This document shows, piece after piece, positions 3,441-56,070 of a stretch of DNA of 64,000 bases. A program made the position numbers and the translations under genes. The first letter of the stretch is position 1, and each line of letters begins with the position of its first letter. Source of the DNA: a virus (lineage: Duplodnaviria > Caudoviricetes). The stretch lies in the IMG/VR virus record IMGVR_UViG_3300044627_003892, one strand, 5' to 3'. The notes beneath the pieces are model-generated. The model ran no database searches. It was given only the letters and a program-made list of their open reading frames with translations, and was not told the origin of the DNA.

Positions 3441-4835
3441 TTAAGCGGTAGGGAAATCAGGTATTATATCTTGACTTTGTTTATCAGGAATATTCATTAC
3501 ATACTCATTTTTCCAACCGTTGTACATTTTATTTAAATCGATTGAATATTTAATTTTATTTTTTTCAGGATATCGTGTAGGTTTGATAATATCAATAGTC
3601 GTGTAGTAACTAAATAACCAATAAAATGATGCATTATTATACGTATTGACATATATTGGCAAAAAATCTTTCTTAGACTCTACCGAATTCAAACTTTCAC
3701 ACGTTTCATCAAGAATTAAAATTCCATTCTCAATTTTTGTTCCACATCCATCATAACCAATCATAATTGTATAATCGTACAAACATTGTTTAAAACTATC
3801 AATAAATTTGTTTAAATTTGAATTAATTTTAAGTCCTTTTTTTGAAAGTGTGTCAAACAAAACTTTAAATCTCGTAAATTGTTCCTGTTTATCAACCCTA
3901 TAATCTATTTGGGTATCAGAATCAGGGTCAGGAAAAATTTTATCAAAGTCTAAAAATGATGAGGACGAATTAGATGATGATAAACTATGTGGATATTCTG
4001 ATTTTTTATTTGAACTTATTATCCCATTATCTGAAGAGTGGAATTTAATTCCATTTTCATTAAAATATCCGTCAACTAAATGACCAATTTCATGTAAAAC
4101 AGATTCTTCCCATATTCCGGGATTGTCTAACTTATAACCCTCACCAAAGAGATAGTCAGAAAAGGTACATATATATACAATTCCATCAACTAATGATGGA
4201 TAAACATACATCATTGTATTAGGGTTTTTTTCATTGTAGTTAAAATCTAATTTGAATGATATAGATGGTAAATATGTACTAATTAGATTATCAATCTCGT
4301 GTTTTACTTTATCCTCACTAACAGGAACTCCATTTTTTTTTGATATTGTAATTATTTTATTAATAATTTCAGGTTTTGATTTATAATCAAAATATTTTTT
4401 AAAAAAATTAATGCTTTTATTTAAAAAATTTGATTTAGCGTATTGTGTAGGGTTTAAATTTTTTATTTTTTGTTGAACCCATTTTTGAAATAAACTATTT
4501 TGAGATGTATAATATTCCTTATATGGTATTTCTTGAGCATATTTAATTTTTAGTGATTCAAAATCTTTTTTTATTTTTGCATTAGCTAGTTCTATATCAC
4601 GTTTTAATTTTAAATCAGGGTTGTCTTCAATTGTTTTTTTTGATATTTGTCGAGTGTTGTTTTGTTGGAATTGCCCACCCGCACCCAAATAATCTGATTT
4701 AGGCATATAATCAGATTGATTAATTTTTCTAACATCAAATGGTGGGTCTTGTTCCGAAATTAAAGGTTTAACATCACCAATGGTAGATTCCATTAAATTG
4801 AAAAATCTTTTTCTATAATTTTCAATATTGTTCAT
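3441..4835 (-). CDS. leader-family protein with HExxH zinc-metallopeptidase-like motif
   Basis: MNNIENYRKRFFNLMESTIGDVKPL leader; SVLHEIGHLVD and a downstream EQFTR Glu. Confidence 0.6.
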   Translation of the reverse strand: MNNIENYRKRFFNLMESTIGDVKPLISEQDPPFDVRKINQSDYMPKSDYLGAGGQFQQNNTRQISKKTIEDNPDLKLKRDIELANAKIKKDFESLKIKYAQEIPYKEYYTSQNSLFQKWVQQKIKNLNPTQYAKSNFLNKSINFFKKYFDYKSKPEIINKIITISKKNGVPVSEDKVKHEIDNLISTYLPSISFKLDFNYNEKNPNTMMYVYPSLVDGIVYICTFSDYLFGEGYKLDNPGIWEESVLHEIGHLVDGYFNENGIKFHSSDNGIISSNKKSEYPHSLSSSNSSSSFLDFDKIFPDPDSDTQIDYRVDKQEQFTRFKVLFDTLSKKGLKINSNLNKFIDSFKQCLYDYTIMIGYDGCGTKIENGILILDETCESLNSVESKKDFLPIYVNTYNNASFYWLFSYYTTIDIIKPTRYPEKNKIKYSIDLNKMYNGWKNEYVMNIPDKQSQDIIPDFPTA

Positions 4836-4857
4836 ATTAATAAATACATTGTAAAAC

Positions 4858-4883
4858 AAAAAACCCCACTCGTGGTGGGGTTT
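4858..4883. terminator. intrinsic terminator
   Basis: aaaccccac-tcgtg-gtggggttt hairpin. Confidence 0.75.
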
Positions 4884-4903
4884 AAATATTCTTGTAAAAA
4901 AAA

Positions 4904-5281
4904 TTATAAATATTTTTTAATTACATTAACCTTAAATGGTCCCAAAGGATTTGGGAAGTTTTCTTTTACTTGAGAAGGGTAACTGTATTCTAAAAAATAT
5001 ACTTTTTCACCATCAGTTATAAATCTTATTGGTGCTGGACCTTTATTTACGTTTTCAAAAAATACTATCATATCAGGTTCATAGTTAAAGAATTTTGTAG
5101 CTTCTTTAATTTCTCCATACATTTTTTGGTCTGTAAAAGCAAAATCTCTCCAATTTTGTTTCATTTTATAACCTTTTTTTCTTAACTCATCGTAAAAACC
5201 AGGATTTTGTGGTTGCTCAAGAATTACTCTTTTAACCAATCTTACTAAATCTGACTCAGTTAATCTTACTACTTTTTTCAT
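4904..5281 (-). CDS. RLTESDL leader-family protein
   Basis: MKKVVRLTESDLVRLVKRVILEQ N-terminus. Confidence 0.75.
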   Translation of the reverse strand: MKKVVRLTESDLVRLVKRVILEQPQNPGFYDELRKKGYKMKQNWRDFAFTDQKMYGEIKEATKFFNYEPDMIVFFENVNKGPAPIRFITDGEKVYFLEYSYPSQVKENFPNPLGPFKVNVIKKYL

Positions 5282-5320
5282 GATAATGTTTTATTATAAA
5301 TACATTATAAAACAAAAAAA

Positions 5321-5824
5321 TTACTCTTCTTCGTCAAGATATCTACCAAGATTAACAGGTTCCACAAATGTTCCCTCAAGTTCGGACATTTCTTTCTTAT
5401 ACTCCTCTAAAGTTTCAACTGAATAGATGGGAGCAAATAATGGACGACGATTAAATGGAACATTATCTCGGTTTTCCCATTCCTCCAATTCTTTTTCTAT
5501 ATTAGGAATTTGTCGTTTTACATATGAATATTTGTACCATTTCTCGTAGTCCTCACGTGTGGGAACGAATTTAACGTCACCATAGTTATAAATATTCAAA
5601 TCAGGGTTGTTTGTGTAAACATTAAGAATACCCTCATCACCATCATACTGATTACATAACTCTTGAAGAGTATATGGGTTTGTTATACCTTTATCTTCCC
5701 AACTTCTTCCATAGGAATGAATTTTACAGATATAAAAATATCCGTCTTCAAAAGAATAGATTTCACTATTAATCTTGTCTTTCAATTCAACAAGTTGTTC
5801 TATTGTGTAATTAGATAAATCCAT
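5321..5824 (-). CDS. hypothetical protein (host-type promoter)
   Basis: Start MDLSNY just after TATATTTG on the minus strand. Confidence 0.7.
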   Translation of the reverse strand: MDLSNYTIEQLVELKDKINSEIYSFEDGYFYICKIHSYGRSWEDKGITNPYTLQELCNQYDGDEGILNVYTNNPDLNIYNYGDVKFVPTREDYEKWYKYSYVKRQIPNIEKELEEWENRDNVPFNRRPLFAPIYSVETLEEYKKEMSELEGTFVEPVNLGRYLDEEE

Positions 5825-5840
5825 GGGACAAATATAAAAC

Positions 5841-5874
5841 AAAAAACCCCATCAAACAAATGAATGGGGTTTTA
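5841..5874. terminator. intrinsic terminator
   Basis: aaaaaaccccat...atggggtttt hairpin. Confidence 0.7.
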
Positions 5875-5892
5875 AAATTATAATATTTATTT

Positions 5893-6309
5893 TTACATTT
5901 GATTTCTTAGTTTATCTTCAAGACCTCTTAAATCGTCTCTTTTTGTTGTATAAACTCCGAATCCTTTATCATCGTCTTGATTCGCTCCGAAACCTTTTTT
6001 CAATTTACTCAATATCAAATTTCCAACAACTTCAGGTTTTTCCATGATAAAATTAGCCAAGTCAATTAATTCATCATTTCCTTTTTCTGAAAATTCAAAA
6101 CTAGACAAGATATCATCAAGTATTCTATTAATTTGTCTCGATTCTGTTTTAGTTGCAGTTTCGTCCTCTTTTAAAAATAATTTTACATCTCCCGACTTGG
6201 TGTTAATCAATTTTGAAAAGTTTTCTGTAACAACATTCATTCCCCCTGTATGTTGACCACGTATGGAGTTCTTTTCTTCCTCCGTTAAGTTATTTAATAA
6301 ATGTTTCAT
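5893..6309 (-). CDS. leader-family hypothetical protein
   Basis: MKHLLNNLTEEEKNSIRGQH N-terminus; internal LINTKSGDVKLFLKE echoes the STIGDVKPL leader. Confidence 0.7.
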   Translation of the reverse strand: MKHLLNNLTEEEKNSIRGQHTGGMNVVTENFSKLINTKSGDVKLFLKEDETATKTESRQINRILDDILSSFEFSEKGNDELIDLANFIMEKPEVVGNLILSKLKKGFGANQDDDKGFGVYTTKRDDLRGLEDKLRNQM

Positions 6310-14476: not shown

Positions 14477-14508
14477 TTTGTTTAATTCATAATTTCTTAT
14501 TATATTTG
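14477..14508 (+). promoter_or_regulatory. Bacteroidota sigma70-type promoter
   Basis: TTTG (14477-80), 20 nt, then TATATTTG (14501-08), 4 nt before ATG. Confidence 0.75.
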
Positions 14509-14512
14509 TACT

Positions 14513-15307
14513 ATGGTTATTACAGATAGATTAAAACAAATTATTTTTAAACACCTATATAGAGAGTTAGGTGATTGTGAGATTATTCCTTATAATGGGT
14601 CTATATGGTTCATTAATAGGGATAATAAACATTGGTACTTTGAACTTGATGAGTCAGGTACTTTATGGTGGAGATACGATTTTTTTAATTCGTTTTTTCA
14701 AATATTCTCCATGAGTTCGGATGATTTTTGTCCTGTTCTATCTTCTTGGGTGGAAGAGGTCTTAAATCATAAGGTATCCACAACCCAGGATAGCCTGTGT
14801 AACGTATGTAAACTGGTGGAAGAGGTCTTAAATCATAAGGTATCCACAACCTTCATTCCACTTCCAATTACAACGGACAAGGTGGAAGATGTATTAAATC
14901 ATAAGGTATCCACAACGTGCGATGTTAAAGTTCGTGTTCCTTGGAAGGTGGAAGATGTATTAAGTCATAATGTTAAGGTGTCTACAACTACCATTCTCAA
15001 ATACCCCGAGCATTCATTGGTGGAAAAGGTCTTAAATCATAAGGTATCCACAACCGATTCACTTGATTACGTTGGAAGAATTGAGGTAGAAGAGGTATTA
15101 AATCATAGGGTATCTAGAACCTGCCAAACAAGCGTTTATTGTGATAGGACGGTGGAAGAGGTCTTAAATCATAAGGTATCCACAACGCAGAATTTGAATT
15201 ATGTCGGCCAAGGACTGGTGGAAGATGTATTAAATCATAAGGTATCTACAACGGAATCGTATTTTGGACCCTTCACAAGAGGGGTGGAAGAGGTATTAAA
15301 TCAATAA
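14513..15307 (+). CDS. array-bearing protein 1 (conserved N-domain plus VEEVLNHKVSTT-X10 repeats)
   Basis: 264 aa; 22-aa periodic C-terminal half. Confidence 0.85.
   Translation: MVITDRLKQIIFKHLYRELGDCEIIPYNGSIWFINRDNKHWYFELDESGTLWWRYDFFNSFFQIFSMSSDDFCPVLSSWVEEVLNHKVSTTQDSLCNVCKLVEEVLNHKVSTTFIPLPITTDKVEDVLNHKVSTTCDVKVRVPWKVEDVLSHNVKVSTTTILKYPEHSLVEKVLNHKVSTTDSLDYVGRIEVEEVLNHRVSRTCQTSVYCDRTVEEVLNHKVSTTQNLNYVGQGLVEDVLNHKVSTTESYFGPFTRGVEEVLNQ
14749..15303 (+). repeat. CRISPR-like in-frame array: 8 full repeats (36 nt; one 42 nt) plus a partial repeat, 8 spacers of 30 nt
   Basis: Repeat starts counted at 14749, 14815, 14881, 14947, 15019, 15085, 15151, 15217, 15283. Confidence 0.9.
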
Positions 15308-19634: not shown

Positions 19635-20045
19635 ATGAAATACATAATCACTGAGAATCAATATAGCAAAACTCTTAAACCCTTATTAGAGAAATTTGGT
19701 ATGCGTACTCTGTGTAAAATGACTGATAAGGAACCTGAAGATATTATTGATGAGATTGGTCTTAAAGGAACAAGAGAAGATATTATCTTTCTAACAAAAA
19801 CTATACTTGAAAATGATATCTCAACCGTCTTGATGTATTGTAGTTATAATATCATACCCACTCGTGACTCTATGAACTTGGTCGTCTACATACCTAAGCC
19901 AGCTCCTGCAAATGTGGGAAGGTATATCTATGAGGAAGGTACAAGAAGTATGTATAGAGATGTTATTTCTAAGGCTTTATATCAATTGGGTGGTGGTCTA
20001 ATTAGAGTTCACAATATTGAGGTTTATAATACAGGAAATTGTTAA
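19635..20045 (+). CDS. MKYxITE leader protein
   Basis: MKYIITENQ. Confidence 0.75.
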   Translation: MKYIITENQYSKTLKPLLEKFGMRTLCKMTDKEPEDIIDEIGLKGTREDIIFLTKTILENDISTVLMYCSYNIIPTRDSMNLVVYIPKPAPANVGRYIYEEGTRSMYRDVISKALYQLGGGLIRVHNIEVYNTGNC

Positions 20046-20061
20046 CTTATATTTATATATA

Positions 20062-20418
20062 ATGAAATATCTTATCACCGAATCAAAATTAAAAACATTC
20101 ATTAAAAACAAGTTTAATATTGACCTGACAGGTCGTGTGGAATTTGAACCTGATTCATATGAATTATTGGTTTATTTTGATAACTATCTTACTCAAGATA
20201 GTTTAGCAAGAAGACGGAGAATGGATAACTATGGTCCGATATATTTTATAGAATTAGATAATGGAAATAAAATATTTTATCAAATGAATTATAGTTCAGA
20301 CAGTCCTTTAATTCTTAGTAACGAAGGTGCTCAATATACTGAATCACAATTTATGAATTTACTTGGTATCTCAGGTCTTGGAATATCAATTGAACAATTT
20401 CTTGATTTATACGTATAA
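20062..20418 (+). CDS. MKYLITES leader protein
   Basis: Start reassigned to MKYLITESKL. Confidence 0.75.
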   Translation: MKYLITESKLKTFIKNKFNIDLTGRVEFEPDSYELLVYFDNYLTQDSLARRRRMDNYGPIYFIELDNGNKIFYQMNYSSDSPLILSNEGAQYTESQFMNLLGISGLGISIEQFLDLYV

Positions 20419-20433
20419 GATACTTAATCACTA

Positions 20434-21234
20434 TTAGATTAACGTACCAACATATCCTAATGCATCCCAATGACTCTTTCCTTTTGGTGTCTTAGTTGCA
20501 CCCGCTACCACATCTAATCCTCTTGCTTTCGATGGACCTGTAATAACATGTGATGATGGAACTCCTTTACCTACCGCAGACTGAACTGAACTTGATGTAT
20601 TCTTAGATATAGCGTAAGGTTCTACTATGAATAACTTACTTTTGTTTTTAATAAGAGAAGCAACTTTAGATGAGTATGAACATCCTGCACTGAATAATAC
20701 AACTGTCGCGTTAGGATTTTGTATGATTGCGGTTTCAATCTTATCAAATTGATTATATCTATATCCTATAACATTTTTCTTTGAACTATTACTTTTAAGT
20801 AAGTTTATTTGTTCACCTATGTTTAAGTCTCCCTTTCTATAATCTAATCCACCCATTAATATAACATCAACAATTGGAGCTTTAGAATCTTTTTTATCAT
20901 CAGACTCCGTTGATTCGTATATGACATCAACACATTCTTTATTATAAAACCTTTCTAAGTCATCCCTCATGTAGTTTTCTACATACGTAACACCATCTTT
21001 ATATTTTAACCACTCAGACAACGGACCATCGGTATCAGAACCATCTGTAATCATGTCCATAATTTCATGTTGTATACCACGCATGAATGCTTCAAAGTTT
21101 TCAAAATCACATGGATAATTAGTTACATTGTTATCCCATACAAACGATTTAAATCTATTCAATCTTCTTTTGAACTTTGGTGAAAAATCTGTTTCTTCCC
21201 TTAATACTTTTTTTATATTCTCTTGTAGGTTCAT
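20434..21234 (-). CDS. MNLQE leader protein with possible alpha/beta-hydrolase-like C-terminal domain
   Basis: VILMGGL, VVLFSAG (elbow-like), IVEP, HW motifs. Confidence 0.4.
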   Translation of the reverse strand: MNLQENIKKVLREETDFSPKFKRRLNRFKSFVWDNNVTNYPCDFENFEAFMRGIQHEIMDMITDGSDTDGPLSEWLKYKDGVTYVENYMRDDLERFYNKECVDVIYESTESDDKKDSKAPIVDVILMGGLDYRKGDLNIGEQINLLKSNSSKKNVIGYRYNQFDKIETAIIQNPNATVVLFSAGCSYSSKVASLIKNKSKLFIVEPYAISKNTSSSVQSAVGKGVPSSHVITGPSKARGLDVVAGATKTPKGKSHWDALGYVGTLI

Positions 21235-21266
21235 AATATTATAAATATAATTATATTTATTATTAC

Positions 21267-21638
21267 ATGAAGTATATTATTACCGAGTCACAACATAAAT
21301 TAATATCCGAACTTGAAAGAACTTGGAGAGATTCTGAATATACGGAACAATACAATAGACTAAAACCTAAAATGATTCGTTATTTTGAAAATTTGGTTGA
21401 TTCACATTCTGAAAATGATGTAAGACTTAACTTATTTGATAGTGACCAAAACGCCGTAATGGTTTATAATAAACCAAGTGGTGATTTATACTATAATAGG
21501 AACTTTGACGATATATATGGTACAGCCTTTCCTCATCCCATTTGGTTAGTTCACGGCAAATTCATTATGTCAGATGTATTTAATGAGTTCTTTCCTGACT
21601 ACGAAGTTAAATCAGTTAGAAGTATAACATTATCATGA
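21267..21638 (+). CDS. MKYxITES family protein
   Basis: MKYIITESQ. Confidence 0.75.
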   Translation: MKYIITESQHKLISELERTWRDSEYTEQYNRLKPKMIRYFENLVDSHSENDVRLNLFDSDQNAVMVYNKPSGDLYYNRNFDDIYGTAFPHPIWLVHGKFIMSDVFNEFFPDYEVKSVRSITLS

Positions 21639-21973
21639 AATATTTAATCACAGAATCACAATTAGATAAAGCAATACTCAAGTTTCTTGATAGTCAGGAT
21701 TTTAATATAACTAAAATTGGTGCCAGTACATATATTTCATACCCTGAAGATGATTTTGCTCAGATTAAATATGGTGGTAATCATTCCAATAATGAATTGT
21801 GTTTTATCTATAAAGGTTTAATTGAAGCAATTTCTTCCTTCTTTTCTCTTAACAGTTATCAATCCACCAGAATTGTTGGGCAATGGGTTAAGAAAAAACT
21901 GAATTTGGAGGGTCAAATGTCCAACAAGATAATGAGCTCCCAATGGTCGTTAAAATTACCAACTGAAGATTAA
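21635..21973 (+). CDS. MKYLITES family protein
   Basis: SSFFSL...GQWVKKKL. Confidence 0.8.
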   Translation: MKYLITESQLDKAILKFLDSQDFNITKIGASTYISYPEDDFAQIKYGGNHSNNELCFIYKGLIEAISSFFSLNSYQSTRIVGQWVKKKLNLEGQMSNKIMSSQWSLKLPTED

Positions 21974-22004
21974 TTTGTATTTTCAAAGTTTTTTTGTATC
22001 TTTG
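21974..22004 (+). promoter_or_regulatory. Bacteroidota sigma70-type promoter
   Basis: TTTG (21974-77), 19 nt, then TATCTTTG (21997-22004). Confidence 0.75.
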
Positions 22005-22009
22005 TGCTT

Positions 22010-22648
22010 ATGGTTACAGATAAGCTAAAACAACTCATATTCAAACACCTATACAAAGAGTTAGGTAATGTGGAGATAATCCCGTATAAAGACTCTGTAT
22101 GGTTCATTGATAGGGAAAATTGTTATTGGTATTTTCAGTTGTCTAAAGATGGATGTTTATTTTGGAGATACTCATTCTTCCCATCGTTTTTCAGTATTTT
22201 CTCTTTGGAGCAAAGTGAGTTTGAACCAATAATATCTTCTTGGGTGGAAGAGGTATTAAATCATAAGGTATCCACGACAGGTAATAAGCTCGGTTACTTC
22301 TCGCGAAAGGTGGAAGAGGTATTAAATCATAAGGTATCCACAACAAAAATGTTTGTAATTGACGAATTTCCTCTGGTGGAAGAGGTATTAAATCATAAGG
22401 TATCCACAACTGAAGAGAAAACTACTGTAACAGCAAAGTGGGTGGAAGAGGTCTTAAATCATAAGGTATCCGAAACTTTTGAAGTAGACGCCGCCCAAAA
22501 AAGAAAGGTAAAAAAAGTATTAGATAGTAGGGTATCAACAACTAAAAATAATTCCTTATTTTCCGAAAGGTCAGTGGAAGAAGTATTAAATAGTGCTTGG
22601 GTGAAAAAGGCATTAAACAATAAAAAAGAAAATGAAAGTAACGGATAG
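22010..22648 (+). CDS. array-bearing protein 2
   Basis: ATG at 22010 (MVTDKLKQ); paralog of 14513. Confidence 0.85.
   Translation: MVTDKLKQLIFKHLYKELGNVEIIPYKDSVWFIDRENCYWYFQLSKDGCLFWRYSFFPSFFSIFSLEQSEFEPIISSWVEEVLNHKVSTTGNKLGYFSRKVEEVLNHKVSTTKMFVIDEFPLVEEVLNHKVSTTEEKTTVTAKWVEEVLNHKVSETFEVDAAQKRKVKKVLDSRVSTTKNNSLFSERSVEEVLNSAWVKKALNNKKENESNG
22243..22592 (+). repeat. CRISPR-like in-frame array: 5 repeats plus a degenerate sixth, 5 spacers of 30 nt
   Basis: Repeat starts 22243, 22309, 22375, 22441, 22507, 22573. Confidence 0.88.
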
Positions 22649-23243
22649 ATTAAGACAACTCATATTCAAACAACTATACAAAGAATTAGGTAATGTGGAA
22701 ATTATCCCTACCCAATACAGTTATTGGTTTATTAATAGAGAAGAAAAATACTGGTATTTCCAACTAACTGAAAGTGGATGTTTATATTGGAGATATGATT
22801 ATTTCAAATCTTTCTTTTCTTTTTTCTCTTTGGAGTCCAAAGATTTTGAACCAATTATTTCATCTTGGGTGGAAGAGGTATTGAATAGTAAAGTATCCAC
22901 AACAATTGTGCAGATGCATCATAAGAAGGATTCGGTGGAAGAGGTATTGAATAGTAAGGTATCCACAACTCAGCAATTCAGTTTCACTTCGAATGATATG
23001 ATGGAAGAGGTATTGAATAGTAAGGTATCCACAACTGCAGGAAAGGCAGGAACTGTAACCATTGCGGTGGAACAGGTATTGAATCGTAAGGTATCCAAAA
23101 CAGTCCGTGACGTAGGTGAAGGAAACTTTTTGGTGGAAGATATATTGAATCGTAAGGTATCCAAAACGGAAGAATTCATCTCAAGAAGAGCGGAATCGGT
23201 ATATGAGGCATTAAACAACAAAAAAGAAAATGAAAGTAACTGA
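22632..23243 (+). CDS. array-bearing protein 3 (VEEVLNSKVSTT variant)
   Basis: Overlaps the upstream gene; paralogous N-domain. Confidence 0.85.
   Translation: MKVTDRLRQLIFKQLYKELGNVEIIPTQYSYWFINREEKYWYFQLTESGCLYWRYDYFKSFFSFFSLESKDFEPIISSWVEEVLNSKVSTTIVQMHHKKDSVEEVLNSKVSTTQQFSFTSNDMMEEVLNSKVSTTAGKAGTVTIAVEQVLNRKVSKTVRDVGEGNFLVEDILNRKVSKTEEFISRRAESVYEALNNKKENESN
22868..23216 (+). repeat. CRISPR-like in-frame array: 5 repeats plus partial, 5 spacers of 30 nt
   Basis: Repeat starts 22868, 22934, 23000, 23066, 23132, 23198; repeat variant GGTGGAAGAGGTATTGAATAGTAAGGTATCCACAAC. Confidence 0.88.
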
Positions 23244-23964
23244 TAGATTAAAACAGGTTGTATTCAAACAACTATACAAAGAATTAGGTAATGTGGAGAT
23301 AATCCCATATAAAGATTCTATATGGTTAATTGACCGAGAAAAGGAGCATTGGTATTTTGAATTTGAAAAGAGTGGTCGTTTGTGGTGGAGATATTATTTC
23401 TTTAATAGTTTTTTTACTATTTTCTCATTGGAACCCAAAGATTTTGAACCAATACTCTCTTCTTGGGTGGAAGAGGTATTAAATCATAAGGTGCCCACAA
23501 CTGAATTGTGTGCGGAGAAAAAGTATGATGAGGTGGAAGAGGTATTAAATCATAAGGTATCTACAACTGTTTACATGGGCATGAAGGCAAGTGTGAAGAT
23601 GGAAGAGGTATTAAATCATAAGGTATCCACAACGCAAAACGATATCGGTAAAGAAGGTTTCTTGGTGGAAGATGTATTAAATCATAAGGTATCTACAACA
23701 CAAACGACGAATGCGGAACAAGTGGTTTTGGTGGAAAAGGCATTAAATCATAAGGTGTCTACAATATCATTCAATACACCGCCGTTTCCGAATATGGTGG
23801 AGAAGGTATTAAATCATAAGGTGTCTAAAACCTATTGTAGACCCACTATTGTTCCCAGTGAGGTGAAAGAAGTCCTAAATCATAAGGTAACTACAACACA
23901 CACATCACGTACATGTAATTCACCAGTGGTGGAAGAGGTATTAAATGAAAACCCCACTGAGTAG
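23230..23964 (+). CDS. array-bearing protein 4
   Basis: 244 aa; paralogous N-domain. Confidence 0.85.
   Translation: MKVTDRLKQVVFKQLYKELGNVEIIPYKDSIWLIDREKEHWYFEFEKSGRLWWRYYFFNSFFTIFSLEPKDFEPILSSWVEEVLNHKVPTTELCAEKKYDEVEEVLNHKVSTTVYMGMKASVKMEEVLNHKVSTTQNDIGKEGFLVEDVLNHKVSTTQTTNAEQVVLVEKALNHKVSTISFNTPPFPNMVEKVLNHKVSKTYCRPTIVPSEVKEVLNHKVTTTHTSRTCNSPVVEEVLNENPTE
23466..23946 (+). repeat. CRISPR-like in-frame array: 7 repeats plus partial, 7 spacers of 30 nt
   Basis: Repeat starts 23466, 23532, 23598, 23664, 23730, 23796, 23862, 23928. Confidence 0.9.
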
Positions 23965-24017: not shown

Positions 24018-24638
24018 TTAAGTATTTTTATCTCTAAGTCTTTCATCTGTTTCTTCTTGGACTTCAGGTATGAATCTATCCAAGATTATTTCATACACTT
24101 CTGGTAAGTAAAACGTATTATACCAATCAAATAAATTATCAACACTATTAAAAAAATAATTACCATTATGTGTATTATGTGTAAGTTCCACAAAATAATC
24201 ACCATCACCACTTGTATCGTATATTCCTACATTAGGTTTCTTTGAGTCATCTTCTAATCCATACCAATCAAGTTCAACGGGTGTATAATCAGCAGTTGCA
24301 AAAAAAGGTGTTGCCATTACCCATATTTTTTCTAATACATTAGGTGGATAGTGTCCCGATTTAAACTGCCTTGTCCAATAAAACACATCATCACTACTTA
24401 TTTCAATTTCAAATCCTTTATATTTTGCAGGTAAATTACCATTTTCAATATTTTCAACCAATAGTTCTTTAGCAACAAATTCATCAATTTTTAAATCAGA
24501 CATTTTGTATAAATAGGTAAGACTCACACCCATCATTTTTGCCGTCTTATAAACACCATGTTTACCAACAGTATCCATAATGAATTTACTCTTTTTATCT
24601 TCCCTTAATACTCTTCTTATGTGTTCCTGTAGATTCAT
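24018..24638 (-). CDS. MNLQE leader-family protein
   Basis: MNLQEHIRRVLRED. Confidence 0.75.
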   Translation of the reverse strand: MNLQEHIRRVLREDKKSKFIMDTVGKHGVYKTAKMMGVSLTYLYKMSDLKIDEFVAKELLVENIENGNLPAKYKGFEIEISSDDVFYWTRQFKSGHYPPNVLEKIWVMATPFFATADYTPVELDWYGLEDDSKKPNVGIYDTSGDGDYFVELTHNTHNGNYFFNSVDNLFDWYNTFYLPEVYEIILDRFIPEVQEETDERLRDKNT

Positions 24639-24639
24639 A

Positions 24640-25068
24640 TTAATTACTTTTACCTGTTCCTTTATTGATTAATTTTATACAGTTAGATGATATATTCTCA
24701 AATGTCACAATATGATGTTCATAATCTCCACCTTCGAAATGTGCATCTCTATACCAAGTAACCCCAGCACATTCTGTATCTATTAACCATGTGTCATCAT
24801 CATAACCATCACTAAACATATCTTCTTTATCCAATGAATCTGTGGCAAAAATTGCTGGTTGACATTCCGTATACCATTCACCATATAAATCCATTGCGTG
24901 ATTCTCATAACATTCCCCTACCGATGTCAACAACCCATTAAGTCGTATATTCTTTCTCCATACCGAATTTGATTTATGGACCACAAACTTATTAGGTGTA
25001 TATTCATCTCCTGATGGAGAATATAGTTCTTCCCTTAATATTCGTCTTATTGTTTCTTGTAGGTTCAT
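24640..25068 (-). CDS. MNLQE leader protein, possible ADP-ribosyltransferase-fold domain
   Basis: VVHKS...IRLNGL...AIFAT...DTWLID resembles the ART H-x-S/T, I..GL, aromatic pattern. Confidence 0.4.
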   Translation of the reverse strand: MNLQETIRRILREELYSPSGDEYTPNKFVVHKSNSVWRKNIRLNGLLTSVGECYENHAMDLYGEWYTECQPAIFATDSLDKEDMFSDGYDDDTWLIDTECAGVTWYRDAHFEGGDYEHHIVTFENISSNCIKLINKGTGKSN

Positions 25069-25532
25069 TTCTTTGTATTTTTAACACAGTTAGGGTATCT
25101 CTTACCAAACATAGTTTTCATTCCTTTTTGAGTATATCCTTTCCAACATCTTTCAGTTAATTCACCTTCTTTCATCTCCTGAGTTTTCTTTTTAGATTGT
25201 TCTTTTTTGGATTCAATATATTCAAAGGCAGTTCTTAATCTTTTCTTAACCTCAGGGTCTTTCGCTCTTTCCAAAGCCACTCGTAATCTTTGATGAATTA
25301 GATTTATAATCTGAGACTGACGAGCGTGTGATTTAGATTTGAAACTTTCTTTGTTTAAAGTATCTACAATATCTTGTTTTGTTCTGAACTTAACCGATAC
25401 AGTATCCTTTGGGTTTTCATCAGTATATAATCTTCTGTCGGAATCTTTTGGTTTCTTACCTGTTCCAACTTTGGGGTCTGACTCAACCAAGTATTTCCTC
25501 AATAATCTTCTTATTTGTTCTTGTAGGTTCAT
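25065..25532 (-). CDS. MNLQE leader protein, basic, with C-terminal CWKGY...PNCVK motif
   Basis: CWKGY-type motif recalled from T4-like phage proteins. Confidence 0.65.
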   Translation of the reverse strand: MNLQEQIRRLLRKYLVESDPKVGTGKKPKDSDRRLYTDENPKDTVSVKFRTKQDIVDTLNKESFKSKSHARQSQIINLIHQRLRVALERAKDPEVKKRLRTAFEYIESKKEQSKKKTQEMKEGELTERCWKGYTQKGMKTMFGKRYPNCVKNTKK

Positions 25533-25533
25533 A

Positions 25534-26169
25534 TTATCTATTATCTAATCTATTAACCTCATTATTACGAAGTTTATTCAAATACATCCATTCTAAAGAC
25601 CCAGGCTCTCTTTCTTCTAACGCCAATAAATCTTTTTTACGCCATAGTGTATTGTTCATAATAACCTTAATCATCTCGTCTTGAGTAACTCCTTCAGGTA
25701 CTTCTTTAATTGGTGGAACACACGTATATGACCTATCATTAAATGATAATTCTTCAACAGATATATCATTTCTACCCATCATATTTGAGATTTTACTTAA
25801 AAAAGTATCTTCAAACCATTCTTCAATTATATAATAAAGATAATTTCTTCTAACAGGAAAAGCCCCTAATAGTCCACCAACAAAATCTTCTTGTACTGAT
25901 AATGTTGAAGATTCAAATTGTCTTTTAGACGTTGGGGTTTTATCGTTAGTTTCTTCAAAGAACAATGCAAGATTCATTATTTGTTTTCCATTCTTACAAA
26001 ACTCAAAATCGTGTCTTGTTTTATAACTTTCAACGTGGTATATTTCAGCACCTGAAGCCATACTATTCAATCTATCCAAAATAAATTTCTCGGATTTTTC
26101 ACTCGGTTTCAAATACTTCTTGTTAACCTCTTCTCTTAATACTCTTTTTATGTGTTCCTGTAAGTTCAT
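25534..26169 (-). CDS. MNLQE leader-family protein
   Basis: MNLQEHIKRVLREE. Confidence 0.75.
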   Translation of the reverse strand: MNLQEHIKRVLREEVNKKYLKPSEKSEKFILDRLNSMASGAEIYHVESYKTRHDFEFCKNGKQIMNLALFFEETNDKTPTSKRQFESSTLSVQEDFVGGLLGAFPVRRNYLYYIIEEWFEDTFLSKISNMMGRNDISVEELSFNDRSYTCVPPIKEVPEGVTQDEMIKVIMNNTLWRKKDLLALEEREPGSLEWMYLNKLRNNEVNRLDNR

Positions 26170-38056: not shown

Positions 38057-40336
38057 CTTATAATCTTAATCTCCGATTCAGTTTCAATTATCACACGTGC
38101 CCCACAGGACAACAATGTCTTTTCATTACCACCATACACAACACGACTAGGTCCCAAGATTTCCACTTCAGAACAGTAGGTATTCTTCCTACCTTCTTTA
38201 ATGGTTATAACAGGTTCTAACTCGTTATTCTTCTTGTTGGACCTTATCTTGTGTTGATTGACGTGGATATACTTTTTCATTGTTCCCAAACAACTTCTTC
38301 AGTTGAAAGTGGTTCAACGAATTTTCGTTTGTCTTCTTTTGGTTTAACAGCTTTCTTCTTGTTGAAGTTAAACGAAATCCACAGACGAGTCACGACCAAG
38401 TCCAAACCAAAGTTATAGGTTGACTCTCGTTTCTTCTCACCAGTCTTTTCATCTTTATACCACACATAAGCCAAGTGTCTTGAGGTAAAGACACCAACAT
38501 GACGATAATTACTTTGTTTCAAAGTATTATCCGTCCATAGAGTTTTATAATAAAACCCCACAATACATTTTCCTAATTTTACATCAAACAGTTTCATTTA
38601 CTGATATAGATATTTTTATTTGTTTATTATTTTTTGTAATAACAGGGATTATGATTTCATCATTTGATTGTTCCACCTCAGGTAGAACCGTTAAACTACA
38701 ACTTTCAAATCCAGTTCTTTCTTTCTCAAAATATTTTAGAGCCGTTGTAATTTCGTAAGCAATTTTCTTAACCTCAAAACAATTATCCATAATCCTTATT
38801 ATTTATTCATATCACAATTGATGATGTTGTGGTTATCATCCACGAACATAGCAGTATCACCAATTTTTGGTTTCTTTTTAGTATAATAAAGAATACCATT
38901 TTGTGTAGTAACCGCATAGTATTTACCTTTACCATAATACTCATCAATTTGAATATCAACGACTACCGCTGGATACATCTCTTCACTACTCAAACAGGTA
39001 TCCAATGTTTGAAATTCAATTTTGTCCTCATCTTCATCACATTCATCTTCACAAGATGGTGCTTCAAACTTAGGTGTTTCTTTACTAACAGGGGTTTCTT
39101 GATACAACATCTTGGATATCATAAATCCAAATGACGCTAAGAATAACACAAGAACAACAGACGCAAGGACTGATAAAATAACTGATTTTTTTGACATATA
39201 TTTATTTATTTAATTATTAATCGTAGTTAACTAACTCTTTAACATCACACTTCCACCCAACAACAAACTTCTTTTCAGTATCCAAATTTATAAAGTAAAC
39301 TTCATTATTCAAAATACAATCTTCAACAAATTCCCAAACATAATCTTTCTCTTTCCATTCTTTCAATTTGTCCATGGTGGTTTCAATCACACTCCATCGG
39401 TTCATAATTTCATTGGTGTCCATCCAATACCACAAGAACAACCTGTCCTCAAACTTATATAACGACAGGATTGGTGCGTCGTAATAAATTATGTCCTGAA
39501 CAAACTCCGAACCAGGAAATGGGTGAGTTGACAATACTTCTCCGTTAATTTTCTTCATATCAATAGTGTAAATCTATGTAAAGGTTATTGTCATTATTAT
39601 ATTTAACACAACACCAAGCTGGATGATATTGTTCTTGTTCTGTTTCATACCAAGCACTTTCTTTTAACACAACCCCCCAACCATTTTCCTCATAGTACTT
39701 GTCTTCCACTCGTTGTGTTAGAACCAAAGCATCATCAGGTAGTTCGGAGTGTTCCTCTAAAAACTTTTTAAGTTTACCAACGGTAAGGTAATCTTCATAC
39801 TTACTTAAATCTTCAATAACTCTTACTTTACTCATAAAATTAATTTTTTTCTTAATACTTTAAGTTCTTCCCTATATGGTTGAAACTCATCTTGTGTATG
39901 TGCTTTGTGTCCTTTAGACACAGCCTCTGTTACAATTGATTCTAATACAATAATCCTTGAAATGATTTCTTGTTGTGTCATTTTCTTTTTATTACCCATA
40001 GTCCAAAATCAAAACATAAAAAGTTTATACACAAGTTATATCTATTTCCGTAGCTTTTAGTTACGAAGATTGTTGGGATTAGTCCAACCTGTTTGAAGTC
40101 ACTGCTCCAAGTCATATCAAAAAATGGTATTATTTTCATACAATTTTTGCATATTTGATTAGTTCATATGTCTCGGTGTAACCCATTCCATTATTGTCTT
40201 CTTCAACAATATCAAAGTCAACTTTATTACCACTATTCATTTCATCCAATTCACTATTTGGATGTACAGGTATGATTTCATTGTTTTTAGTTTCAACGAA
40301 CCAACCTTTTGTTGTTTTATATACTTTACCCGTCAT
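38053..40336 (-). other. cluster of short hypothetical ORFs (38053-38289, 38277-38597, 38584-38790, 38799-39197 membrane-anchored, 39217-39558, 39560-39835, 40136-40336)
   Basis: ORF track; co-directional, abutting. Confidence 0.6.
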
Positions 40337-41064
40337 TATGATAGATATTTTGACATATTAATCGCCGCAGTTCTTGCGTCTTCCCAATTTTTAATCGTAT
40401 GTTTACCTCTCTTGTTGAATGGTATTACCGATTTGATTCCATCATTATAAATGTGTTTTTTATCAAAATCATCACCCTTTTTATATGACTTGATATATGT
40501 TTTCCACCACTTTGTAAATTCCTTCTCATCATAATCCTCAACAACTGGATTATATTTTTCATCAAACAATCGGTCACCAATTTTGAATAGACCTCCACCA
40601 CGATGTGTGTAACCATAGTAACCTTTAATACCACCCCACCCACTCATCAATGTTTTATCAGAGTTTACAGTATTCCAAACAATAGCAACTCCGTTTGGAT
40701 ATTCTTCACAAACAGTCATTCCGTTTTGAAAATACCACCAAGCAGTCTCAATATTACCAATATATTTACCATCTTTGGTTAAGAAGGAATCCTCCAAAAC
40801 AAATTCATCATTATCCCACTTGTGAGTTCCAATAACACCACCAGTATATTTCTCAATCAACTCAACTTTCTTGGGGTCAATATTTGAGTAACCTTCCATA
40901 ACCTGTTTTGGTTTGAACCTAGTCACCAATTTGGTAAACCATAAATTAAGGTGAACCTTATTTAATTTACCATCTTTACCACTTGTGTAGTATGGATGTC
41001 TCTCAAACTTCAATACCATTTTCCCAAGATATGGAGTTCTGTTTTTAACTAATTTTTCAATCAT
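40336..41064 (-). CDS. hypothetical protein
   Basis: 242 aa; YGYTHRGGGLFKIGD. Confidence 0.7.
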   Translation of the reverse strand: MIEKLVKNRTPYLGKMVLKFERHPYYTSGKDGKLNKVHLNLWFTKLVTRFKPKQVMEGYSNIDPKKVELIEKYTGGVIGTHKWDNDEFVLEDSFLTKDGKYIGNIETAWWYFQNGMTVCEEYPNGVAIVWNTVNSDKTLMSGWGGIKGYYGYTHRGGGLFKIGDRLFDEKYNPVVEDYDEKEFTKWWKTYIKSYKKGDDFDKKHIYNDGIKSVIPFNKRGKHTIKNWEDARTAAINMSKYLS

Positions 41065-54189: not shown

Positions 54190-56070
54190 CTACTTACCAA
54201 CTTCTTCAAAATCTACATCAGATACTTCAGAATCGTTATTCTCCATTTCGTTCATGTTGTTCATTTCAGAAGTTTGACTATAAAGATTTACAGTAATCTC
54301 TTGGAACACCTTGTTGATGTTATCAATACCTTCCTTAATCTTCTCAATATCTTTTGACGAATGAGCCGACTTTAATTCTTCAAGAGCTACAGTTACCTCT
54401 GACTTTTGTTCTTCCGTAATCTTGTCTTCAATATCTTTCAAAGACTTTTCCACTTGGAAGATTGTTGTGTCAGCTTGGTTGATAACCTCAGCATCTTCTT
54501 TTGCTTTCTTATCTGATTCAGCGTTCATCTCCGCTTCCTTCTTCATCGTTTCAATCTCTTCTTTCGAAAGTCCTGATGATGATTCAATACGGATATTTTG
54601 TTGTTTGTTAGTTCCTTTGTCAAGAGCCGATACATTGATAATACCATTAGCATCAATATCAAACGTTACCTCAACCTGTGGAATACCTCTTTGTGCCGGT
54701 GGGATACCATCCAGGTGGAAACGTCCAATACTTCGGTTGTCTTTCGCCATTGCTCTCTCACCTTGTAATACATGGATTTCAACGGTTGGTTGGTTATCAA
54801 CTGCAGTTGAGAATACCTGTGACTTCTTGGTCGGGATAGTAGTGTTCGCTTCAATTAACTTTGTGAATACTCCACCCATAGTTTCAATACCAAGTGATAG
54901 TGGTGTTACATCTAATAACAATACATCTTTAACATCACCTGCTAATACACCTGCCTGAATTGCTGCTCCAAGAGCAACAACCTCATCAGGGTTAACACCC
55001 TTTGATGGTTCCTTACCGAAGAACTTCTTAACTGCTTCCTGAATTGCCGGAATACGTGTTGTTCCTCCAACCAAAATGATTTCGTCAATATCACTTGTCT
55101 TAATTCCTGCGTTCTTCAATGCCGACTTACAAGGAGCAATAGTTCTTTCAACCAAACTATCAACAAGTTGTTCAAACTTAGCCTTAGTTAAAGTTCTTAC
55201 CAAGTGTTTCGGTATACCATCAACAGGCATAATATATGGTAAGTTAATCTCCGTAGATGGTGAAGAAGATAATTCAATCTTCGCCTTCTCAGCTCCTTCA
55301 CGAAGACGTTGAAGAGCCATAGCATCTTTGGTCAAGTCAATTCCGTTTTCATCTTTGAACTCTGTAACCAACCAGTCAATGATTGCTTGGTCAAAGTCAT
55401 CACCACCAAGGTGTGTATCACCATCAGTAGACAATACTTCAAAAACACCATCACCAAGTTCCAAGACAGATACGTCATGTGTTCCACCACCACAGTCAAA
55501 CACAACAATCTTCATATCTTTAGATTGTTTGTCCAATCCGTAAGCAAGTGCCGCCGCAGTTGGTTCATTAACAATTCTCATTACTTTCAAACCTGCAATC
55601 TCTCCAGCTTCTTTCGTAGCTTGACGTTGAGCATCGTTGAAGTATGCTGGTACCGTGATAACTGCCTCAGTTACCTCTGAACCCAAATAGTCCTCAGCAG
55701 TTTGTTTCATCTTTTGGAGAACCATTGCCGAAATTTCTTGTGGTGAATATTTTCTATCCTCAATCTCAACACGAGGAGTTCCACCATCACCCTTAACTAC
55801 TTTATAAGGAACACGTTTAACCTCACCCTTACTTTCATCAAAACTTGTTCCCATGAAACGTTTGATAGATGAGATAGTCTTATCAGGATTAGTAACCGCC
55901 TGACGTTTAGCAGGGTCACCAACCTTTCTTTCACCACCATTTAAGAAACCCACAATTGAAGGGGTGGTTCTTTTTCCTTCACTGTTTGTAATTACAACTG
56001 GTTCGTTACCTTCCATTACGGCAACACATGAGTTAGTTGTTCCAAGGTCAATACCTATAATTTTTCCCAT
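54190..56070 (-). CDS. dnaK: Hsp70 chaperone DnaK
   Basis: [27 protein letters not shown]; C-terminal DVDFEEV. Confidence 0.97.

Follow-up and report, generated by a model that had tools for sequence, protein, structure and literature searches.

Three overlapping array genes and their junctions

The window analyzed here is the whole stretch of 64,000 nucleotides, and in it a large lake-water phage carries three overlapping paralogous open reading frames (ORFs) on the plus strand at positions 22010-23964, the coordinates of the ORFs and repeats bearing out the trio of array genes described in the initial annotation (Table 1). Each gene encodes a folded N-domain of 78 residues, followed by in-frame units of 66 nucleotides that consist of a 36-nucleotide repeat and an unrelated 30-nucleotide spacer. 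The period is exactly 66 nucleotides in all 16 units of the trio. Neighboring genes overlap by 17 and 14 nucleotides, with each downstream ATG lying 14-17 nucleotides upstream of the preceding stop codon.

Table 1. Features of the array gene trio and of a fourth paralog in the window
Feature	Position	Strand	Details
Bacteroidota-type promoter motif (putative promoter), TTTG-N19-TATCTTTG	21974..22004	+	ends 5 nt upstream of gene A ATG
Array gene A	22010..22648	+	N-domain 22010-22242; stop TAG 22646-22648
Gene A repeats	22243, 22309, 22375, 22441, 22507	+	mismatches to consensus 1, 0, 0, 3, 9
Gene A truncated repeat copies	22573, 22599	+	after fifth repeat
Junction 1	22607..22655	+	degenerate terminal half repeat (..GGCATTAAAC), A-rich stretch, gene B ATG 22632, gene A stop
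Array gene B	22632..23243	+	N-domain 22632-22867; stop TGA 23241-23243
Gene B repeats	22868, 22934, 23000, 23066, 23132	+	mismatches to own consensus 1, 0, 1, 3, 4
Gene B repeat variants	22868, 22934, 23000 (AATAGTAA); 23066, 23132 (AATCGTAAG)		
Gene B terminal half repeat	23198	+	
Junction 2	23205..23253	+	duplicate of junction 1; contains gene C ATG 23230
Array gene C	23230..23964	+	N-domain 23230-23465; stop TAG 23962-23964
Gene C repeats	23466, 23532, 23598, 23664, 23730, 23796, 23862	+	mismatches 2, 1, 1, 2, 5, 5, 6
Gene C terminal half repeat	23928-23946	+	intact, first 19 nt perfect
Fourth paralogous array gene	14513-15307	+	same repeat; own promoter motif 14477-14508

The string GGCATTAAACAA(T/C)AAAAAAGAAAATGAAAGTAAC begins at 22609 and again at 23207, where near-identical gene junctions had been noted, and the two junctions indeed agree at 46 of 49 core positions and at 61 of 75 over a wider span. 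The N-domains of the trio are 72-75% identical to each other. The likeness of the junctions fits the proposed duplication of whole genes, as does the existence of relatives with two array genes instead of three, among which gene loss also occurs. Transcription from one host-type promoter had been proposed as well, and a single motif does precede the trio, with none inside it, among six matches to the TTTG-N19-TATCTTTG regular expression on the plus strand of the window. The motif match suggests a promoter before gene A, and a scan for sigma-70 promoters returned nothing above chance.

It is scarcely credible that this arrangement is an artefact of assembly or a chance periodicity. Short-read assemblies do break at repeats, but three independent lake runs yielded identical array pieces, the architecture recurs in 33 loci and 931 protein clusters, and the 36-nucleotide repeat, allowing up to three mismatches, occurs 15 times in the window and never in 100 shuffles.

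Repeat decay and unit turnover among relatives

The distal copies cited as decayed in the initial annotation (22507, 22573 and 23862) are all real, and distal decay is evident in each of the three trio genes. The terminal half repeat of gene C is nevertheless perfect over its first 19 nucleotides, and hence the decay is not strictly monotonic. The array gene at 14513-15307, which lies outside the trio and has its worst repeat copies in mid-array, likewise shows that repeat polarity is not strict. A repeat variant, AATAGTAAG, had been assigned to a third gene and described as homogenized within its array. The variant exists, but its place is gene B, the middle one of the three, which would be third only with the gene at 14513 taken as the first, and its homogeneity extends over the first three repeats, whereas the last two carry AATCGTAAG.

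Position-dependent divergence of repeats in homologs had been set beforehand as a test of polar growth, and our comparison of 33 related loci bears it out: the Spearman correlation (rho) of mismatch count with repeat position is above zero in 36 of 38 homologous arrays, or 18 of 20 when only independent arrays are counted. All orthologs have their distal spacers in common. For example, two distal spacers are common to the gene A orthologs of L002-L006, L009 and L043, and the last two spacers of gene B are common to all of its orthologs, whereas only this phage, of all the loci compared, has the first spacer of gene B (22904-22933). Private spacers make up 9 of 23 units at position 1 (39%) versus 16 of 129 elsewhere (12%, p=0.004), and the enrichment was replicated in 120 other independent proteins (51/97, or 53%, versus 101/281, or 36%; p=0.006). 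Moreover, variants of the repeat are contiguous along the arrays, with 138 shared adjacent variants versus 112.7 +/- 6.8 after shuffling (p<0.0002). A series of gene C orthologs (L043, L042, L002, L006 and L009) displays gain of units next to the N-domain and conservation of distal units.

The clearest single case is the L043 array, which equals that of L042 plus one N-proximal unit, the remainder being identical at 583 of 588 positions. Both repeats that flank the additional spacer carry the rare G28 variant of the first L042 repeat, so that copying of the first repeat upon insertion, as initially proposed, is directly seen in this one instance. Alternatively, the same pattern could have arisen by unequal crossover with an unsampled allele that differs in its first spacer. 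Such an origin would be natural if no integrase were involved and the genes formed an ordinary family of tandem-repeat proteins, in which conserved 12-residue motifs and variable 10-residue linkers are shuffled among a large standing pool by homologous recombination and unequal crossover at the repeats, and in which polarity reflects purifying selection that is stronger on the N-proximal repeats than on the tail. We consider this explanation unlikely as a whole, although it deserves serious weight, and two data sets in which novelty is concentrated at the first position speak against it.

Turnover is concentrated at the N-domain end, as predicted, but internal differences exist and 11 of 83 internal units are private. 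Deletion and inter-array recombination can account for these, with internal insertion also being possible. In addition, ortholog maps reveal the same proximal block joined to different middle blocks, and cassettes occur in different paralogs, indicating movement between them. Polar addition alone is insufficient to explain these maps, and mosaic arrays with mobile cassettes are what shuffling within a tandem-repeat family would produce. Polarized growth, a degenerate terminal repeat and a conserved old end are nonetheless features of CRISPR arrays that, as judged by comparison among relatives, recur here. The polar-growth interpretation of the initial annotation is supported by these sequence comparisons, which suggest that units are gained mainly beside the N-domain. 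We found no description of N-proximal gain combined with far-end decay for protein-coding genes.

Cassettes, the first repeat and possible partners

Of 279 units in 49 arrays, 271 have a spacer of 30 nucleotides, and the arrays resemble CRISPR arrays in general in having repeats of constant length and unique spacers of constant length. The exact length is not expected of a tandem-repeat protein, whose linkers tolerate steps of three nucleotides. Only 4 of 174 unique spacers contain an in-frame stop codon, versus 29-63% in the other five frames, and these spacers exhibit no excess of mutual overlaps. Pairs of spacers are either identical at 24-29 of 30 positions or similar at chance level, with nothing intermediate, and therefore units are replaced rather than mutated. 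A repeat protein evolving by unequal crossover alone should exhibit graded similarity between units, but here the variable parts are either near-identical and orthologous or unrelated, with no intermediates between 80% identity and chance. Nor does shuffling explain where unrelated new cassettes originate, and the pool is unsaturated, with a Chao1 estimate of at least 774 from 413 cassettes.

The composition of the spacers also bears on their origin. GC content falls from 0.41 in proximal to 0.37 in distal spacers, versus 0.32 for the phage (p=0.015), and the amino acid composition of cassettes is closer to random translation than to native proteins, with arginine, histidine and cysteine about twofold above native levels and lysine at about half. 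A spacer GC content above that of the phage and falling with age, together with this random-like composition, provides indirect signs of foreign origin, and both trends are difficult to reconcile with an ordinary tandem-repeat family. However, spacers also carry a codon-position periodicity in the ORF frame, which such a family would readily account for and which is stronger than a simple stop filter yields. Random capture followed only by a stop filter is thus an insufficient cause, and capture of coding DNA in its native frame was ruled out because the amino acid composition is random-like.

The first repeat is constrained at the nucleotide level. Its synonymous sites are frozen (GTG in 19/19, GAA in 20/20 and AAT in 20/20), and its modal-codon share is 0.855 compared with 0.679 for the N-domain (p=0.007), which goes beyond what a protein would need. 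The sequence VEEVLN encoded by the first repeat is predicted to form the end of helix 3 of the N-domain, which folds confidently in prediction (pLDDT 87.6), a point in favor of an ordinary tandem-repeat family. The array-encoded tail is not predicted to fold (pLDDT 25-55), a point against such a family, although this prediction says little either way because of its low confidence. No match to the N-domain fold was found in the PDB, and AFDB returned only two uncharacterized matches (TM 0.66-0.68). Searches of Pfam, NCBIfam and PHROGs found no family at a significant E-value, and all 931 protein clusters of the family are annotated as hypothetical.

Nucleotide-level constraint would also be expected if the phage carried genuine CRISPR arrays descended from type VI-B or II-C, with an RNA as the working product. 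The mRNA would be cut into 66-nucleotide crRNAs for a host Cas13b or Cas9, and the crRNAs would serve as decoys or target sequences of the host or of rival phages. Translation would then be secondary, for example guarding a long transcript from premature termination or delivering ribosomes to the next gene. This explanation differs from the one we prefer in the purpose of the arrays and not in how they grow, and we judge it quite improbable. The layout of VI-B crRNAs is matched in 36/30 geometry, CAAC-3′ end and sense orientation, and one RNA-library contig runs from the N-domain through a repeat and a spacer into another repeat. Furthermore, huge phages often carry compact arrays without Cas1, some with host-like repeats (PMC7162821), and RNA anti-CRISPRs that mimic repeats are known (PMC10651486). 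However, the repeat has GGUG rather than GUUG at its 5′ end and a loop free of poly-U, its conserved pairing is limited to a 3-bp terminal stem, and covariation does not exceed that of shuffles (202/500). Rfam contained no match for the repeat. The decay of older repeats would be unexpected were each unit processed.

Searches for a host repeat, for spacer sources and for cas genes bear on all of these explanations. A degenerate repeat pattern had no matches in 185,579 species genomes, which leaves the phage repeat without a known host counterpart. In IMG/VR, the exact cores of seven young spacers matched nothing or only the arrays themselves, and a search of JGI metagenome contigs with two spacers yielded either no match or five phage arrays. 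When all spacers were compared with a 240-kb relative and the related loci, matches fell in arrays only. The trio had only chance-level matches to cultured phages at E-values up to 5. A BLAST comparison of the arrays in the window with 1,604 Bacteroidota genomes (401 each from Crocinitomicaceae, Chitinophagaceae, Flavobacterium and Cyclobacteriaceae) recovered only AT-rich chance matches; one match of 27/28, which straddles a spacer-repeat border, was likewise treated as chance. Across these searches, no protospacer was found for any spacer. Cas1 was not found in five related phage records, one of which is complete, and matches to Cas9 models were limited to HNH domains in ORFs of 160-180 amino acids, below the model cut-off. 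The arrays therefore differ from typical CRISPR loci in having neither associated cas genes nor a cognate host repeat in the material searched. A further difference is that leader and array would both be non-coding in a CRISPR locus, whereas here a conserved folded domain is encoded in the leader position and the reading frame stays open through the array. The lack of targets and of a host repeat weighs against working crRNAs, and the lack of protospacers, cas genes and a host repeat is what an ordinary tandem-repeat family would lead one to expect. The phage RmlA is nearest to those of many Bacteroidota (64-68% identity), with no close donor, and the NCBI contigs carrying homologs are metagenome assemblies rather than bins.

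Proposed growth and comparison with known systems

Our best reading, which we hold with moderate confidence, is that the arrays grow in a CRISPR-like manner, with gain of N-proximal units, distal decay and a duplicated set of genes. The trio would consist of tandem paralogs of a large phage gene family whose unit of 36 + 30 nucleotides corresponds to 22 codons. Growth would occur mainly at the border between the N-domain coding sequence, in the position of a leader, and the first repeat, where an unrelated 30-nucleotide piece of DNA would be inserted along with a copy of the first repeat in the manner of a Cas1-Cas2-type integrase. A host enzyme is the likeliest inserting agent, we infer, because the phages carry no such integrase. 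Since 66 is a multiple of three, insertion would never shift the frame, and insertions carrying a stop codon or unfavorable residues would not persist, given that the array is translated and that each downstream gene begins within the final stretch of its predecessor. Units may be lost through recombination between repeats, and blocks may be exchanged between alleles and between paralogs. Old distal units would gather mutations, and polar decay would therefore result. The gene set would have arisen by duplication of whole units of N-domain, array and junction, with copy number still varying.

A purpose for such growth can be suggested only tentatively. It is possible that the phage offers look-alikes of a leader-repeat border, placed inside genes, to a host CRISPR adaptation enzyme, which would write random 30-nucleotide pieces of whatever DNA the infected cell contains, in frame, into phage proteins, with selection keeping only insertions that are stop-free and soluble. 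The outcome might be an integrase-driven diversification of the cassettes in a protein tail, or a "spacer sink" that would divert adaptation from the host's own arrays.

If leader-end insertion with repeat copying does operate inside ORFs, then CRISPR-type integration has been put to use beyond guide RNAs, either to add new peptide cassettes to a phage protein or to absorb the adaptation machinery of the host. The process should be traceable in nature, because the family is large and recurs in lake metagenomes across several years, with this phage present in at least 15 runs, and the series L043, L042, L002, the window, L006 and L009 supplies concrete predictions on the gain of units. CRISPR finders and gene callers would each annotate only half of such loci.

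Tandem-repeat proteins combine conserved motifs with variable linkers, and diversity-generating retroelements are another route to hypervariable phage proteins. The trio resembles both in placing hypervariable segments in a constant protein frame. However, tandem-repeat proteins diverge gradually, whereas here 30-nucleotide cassettes are replaced all-or-none, and this polarized replacement also differs from the adenine-directed, template-copy mutagenesis of diversity-generating retroelements.

The CRISPR arrays of huge phages are compact, lack Cas1 and Cas2 and have a median of six repeats (PMC7162821). The arrays studied here similarly reside in phages of more than 200 kb, are short (4-9 units) and lack acquisition genes. 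Huge-phage arrays, however, do not encode protein, and in some of them targets can be identified or the repeats are host-like (PMC7162821), whereas arrays of the trio type are translated extensions of a conserved gene, occur in several paralogs per genome and yielded no target in our searches. Racr RNA anti-CRISPRs, which imitate a known host repeat as single non-coding units (PMC10651486), are likewise repeat-like elements in viruses without cas genes, but the phage arrays comprise multiple units that turn over inside ORFs, and no matching host repeat was found for them.

Type VI-B arrays have a 36-nucleotide repeat with pairing 5′-GUUG/CAAC-3′ ends and a poly-U loop, and a 30-nucleotide spacer (10.1101/092577). 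The phage repeat fits in its length, spacer length and CAAC-3′ end, but has a 5′ GGUG, no poly-U, three terminal pairs and no significant covariation. In Bacteroidota, VI-B arrays gain spacers in trans at the leader end, and in Flavobacterium columnare a Cas1-less VI-B array uses the Cas1-Cas2 of a co-resident type II-C system (PMC8092290). The F. columnare arrays differ from those of the phage, in which a protein-coding domain takes the place of the "leader" and the array is an open reading frame throughout, which are phage-borne with cas13b and cas9 not nearby, and whose repeat starts with GGTG, lacks the poly-U loop and occurs in no bacterial genome searched. Nevertheless, both have 36/30-nucleotide units, apparent leader-end addition, a terminal repeat that is degenerate and no adjoining adaptation genes. 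With the repeat read as GTTGT..., its leader-proximal end faces the N-domain, in agreement with the figure 1 legend of PMC8092290.

Architecture and probable duplication of the array genes

The products of the three array genes (the trio A, B and C) begin with an alignable N-terminal part of 78 residues, which is followed by repeated VEEVLNHKVSTT motifs spaced by ten variable residues. At the DNA level the unit is exactly 66 nt, with a 36-nt repeat (consensus GGTGGAAGAGGTATTAAATCATAAGGTATCCACAAC) and an unrelated 30-nt spacer, and the repeat occurs in 15 copies in the window at up to three mismatches, compared with none in 100 shuffles. Upstream of gene A there is a Bacteroidota-type motif, TTTG-N19-TATCTTTG, whose end is 5 nt from the ATG. 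The + strand of the window has only six matches to this putative promoter motif; one precedes a fourth gene of the same build and none is within the trio. Start codons overlap the upstream genes, each downstream ATG lying 14-17 nt ahead of the upstream stop, and translation of the trio is probably coupled.

The initial annotation noted a shared junction string at the A-B and B-C borders and proposed whole-gene duplication. The string indeed starts at 22609 and 23207, and comparative data support the duplication, with a junction core that is identical at 46 of 49 positions between the two borders versus N-domains that are 72-75% identical. The end of gene A (22573-22625) reads ..VEEVLNSAW-VKKALNN.., a truncated last unit followed by S-A-W and a degenerate half repeat. 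This region is similar to the border of N-domain and first repeat (..SSW-VEEVLN) and may mark the breakpoint. The number of array genes differs among close relatives, and in two related loci with three such genes (L004 and L005) the third array is unrelated and the junction is TAA-T-ATG rather than the overlapping type.

Positions of array genes, selected spacers and neighbouring features
Feature	Position	Strand	Remarks
Array gene A	window 22010-22648	+	ORF
Array gene B	window 22632-23243	+	ORF
Array gene C	window 23230-23964	+	ORF
Fourth gene	window 14513-15307		same build as trio
L006 array genes	4234-5300		two (A and C types)
L043 array genes	1534-2800	reverse	two (A and C types)
L004 array genes	4234-6152		three; unrelated third array
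L043 gene C			spacer order 159-28-20-21-61-30-23-24-25
L042 / L045 gene C			spacer order 28-20-21-61-30-23-24-25
Spacer pair, common start	window 22279-22308; L003:4336-4365		
Spacer pair, common start	window 22345-22374; L009:38-67		
Tad6-domain ORF	window 40336-41064	-	Pfam PF25188, E 6e-17
DnaK/HSP70	window 54190-56070	-	full length
Small paralogues	window 19635-21973	+	
Small paralogues	window 20434-21234; 24018-26169	-	

The window is AT-rich (32% GC) and encodes DnaK, histidine kinases, ThyA, RmlA and a Tad6-like product; the closest relatives are lake-water phage contigs, 200-330 kb long. A Tad6 (type I Thoeris inhibitor) domain makes one ORF a candidate anti-defence gene, and DnaK is closest to those of uncultured huge phages (630-640 kb; LR745206, LR756502; 69-70% identity). 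Two families of small paralogues, with N-termini MKY[IL]ITESQ and MNLQE.I.RVLRE, flank the trio, which is therefore within a paralogue-rich island.

Polar decay and turnover of units

As the initial annotation described, mismatches to the consensus increase away from the N-domain in all three trio genes. Exceptions are the terminal half repeat of gene C, 19 nt of which are intact, and the array of the fourth gene, which is not monotonic. Divergence also depends on position in homologues, where rho between position and mismatches is above zero for 36 of 38 arrays; among the 20 arrays that lack common spacers, 18 give a positive value. Repeat variants form contiguous runs (138 vs 112.7 ± 6.8 after shuffling), and this is why one gene can seem to bear its own variant. 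The variant assigned earlier to the third gene, AATAGTAAG, is real but belongs to the middle gene, where it fills the first three repeats.

Unit turnover was read by mapping spacers across orthologous arrays. In each gene, all relatives have the two or three most distal units in common, whereas private spacers are concentrated at the first position (9/23 vs 16/129 elsewhere, p=0.004), a result that was replicated with 120 independent proteins taken from other assemblies (51/97 vs 101/281, p=0.006). Unit change at the N-domain end is thus upheld as an enrichment in two data sets, although some internal units (11/83) are private too. The clearest single case is gene C of two related loci, L043 and L042, in which N-domains are identical at 228 of 236 positions and the rest of the array at 583 of 588. 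Both repeats around L043 spacer 159 are identical to the first repeat of L042, including a rare G at position 28 that is absent from the second L042 repeat. This is the trace that would be expected of leader-end integration with repeat duplication. Judged from these sequence comparisons among relatives, which include the refuting tests set by the initial annotation, the proposals of growth by copying the first repeat, of an N-domain in the leader position and of whole-gene duplication are supported.

Other changes are also evident. One proximal block can stand over several middle blocks (spacers 31-32 above 10-11, 35-38 or 49), and spacers 20-21 stand over 22, over 29-30 or directly over 23. 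The cassette (translated spacer) that is first in gene C of the window is third in a gene with a different N-domain, a single array in L008 carries units of two paralogues, and some relatives have only two array genes while others differ in the third array and junction. Together with the private internal units, these observations mean that arrays must frequently lose units by deletion between repeats and recombine with one another, and internal insertion may also contribute. Collinearity is kept in all arrays. Recombination and loss heavily shape the arrays alongside the proposed polar growth.

Spacers, protein products and constraint on the repeat

Spacer identity is bimodal: one group of pairs, the orthologous copies, matches at 24-29 of 30 positions, and the remaining pairs resemble each other no more than codon-shuffled controls do. 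No pairs fall in between; units are replaced, not gradually altered. Some otherwise unrelated pairs agree, in register, over only the initial 8 or 18 nt; recombination within spacers or capture from related sources could be the cause. Overlap among spacers shows no excess over chance. With 223 distinct cassettes among 413 and a Chao1 estimate of at least 774, the pool is far from fully sampled.

Searches of IMG/VR, JGI contigs, cultured phages, the phage itself and 1,604 Bacteroidota genomes yielded no spacer source. Two Chitinophagaceae genomes match window 23904-23934 (G515:C56:196636-196663 and G700:C24:33001-33029; 27/28 and 27/29 nt). The matched stretch takes in the final 21 nt of gene C's last spacer and runs 7 nt into the terminal repeat. 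The matches are antisense to a host ORF and similarity is weaker further into the repeat; about 0.02-0.3 such matches are expected by chance in the searched set, and we treated them as chance.

Spacer GC content falls from 0.41 next to the N-domain to 0.37 at distal positions, compared with 0.32 for the phage (p=0.015), which is consistent with foreign DNA drifting to phage composition with age. Codon-position periodicity in the gene's frame, first two positions included, exceeds that of random 30-mers from a coding-dense genome after stop filtering. Cassette amino-acid make-up is closer to random translation than to native proteins, with Arg, His and Cys about twice and Lys about half native levels. 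Gly, Glu and Asp are enriched 1.5-1.65 fold in cassettes, and Leu, Ile and Cys are down to 0.65-0.7. We infer that spacers are random DNA passed through a peptide-level filter.

In-frame stops occur in 4 of 174 unique spacers (49 arrays, 29 sequences), all four being flanks after terminal repeats, compared with 29-63% of spacers in the other five frames; the repeat is closed in both remaining sense frames. A confident fold is predicted for the N-domain (pLDDT 87.6), with a helix, four strands and two helices, the last of which continues into VEEVLN of the first repeat. This fold has no match in PDB and only two in AFDB, both uncharacterised; profile libraries recognised no family in the trio proteins, and no fold is predicted for the array-encoded tail. 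An RNA-library contig that covers N-domain, repeat, spacer and repeat in one piece hints at co-transcription, with DNA carry-over possible.

Synonymous sites of the first repeat are nearly frozen in 20 diverged genes (GTG 19/19, GAA 20/20, GAG 19/20, AAT 20/20, AAG 16/17), whereas the same residues use mixed codons in the N-domain (modal codon share 0.855 vs 0.679, p=0.007). This codon pattern indicates that the first repeat is read at the nucleic-acid level. The data do not support a hairpin in the repeat, with only three terminal pairs conserved and covariation no better than shuffles.

Relationship to CRISPR arrays

The present analysis adds quantitative polarity, N-proximal turnover, a first-repeat duplication event, bimodal spacer identity and negative protospacer searches. 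We found no literature description of arrays read as protein. Short Cas1-less arrays are frequent in huge phages (PMC7162821). No cas genes are present in five related phage records, of which one is complete, and the repeat pattern has no match in 185,579 species genomes. Unlike the repeats of type VI-B (Cas13b) arrays, the phage repeat begins with GGUG and lacks a poly-U loop. On these counts the trio arrays are not classifiable as CRISPR arrays, but their growth appears CRISPR-like. Type VI-B arrays of Bacteroidota, which lack Cas1-Cas2, gain spacers at the leader end via a co-resident type II-C system (PMC8092290), and they share with the trio a 36-nt repeat, a 30-nt spacer, a CAAC-3' end and a 66-nt unit (10.1101/092577).
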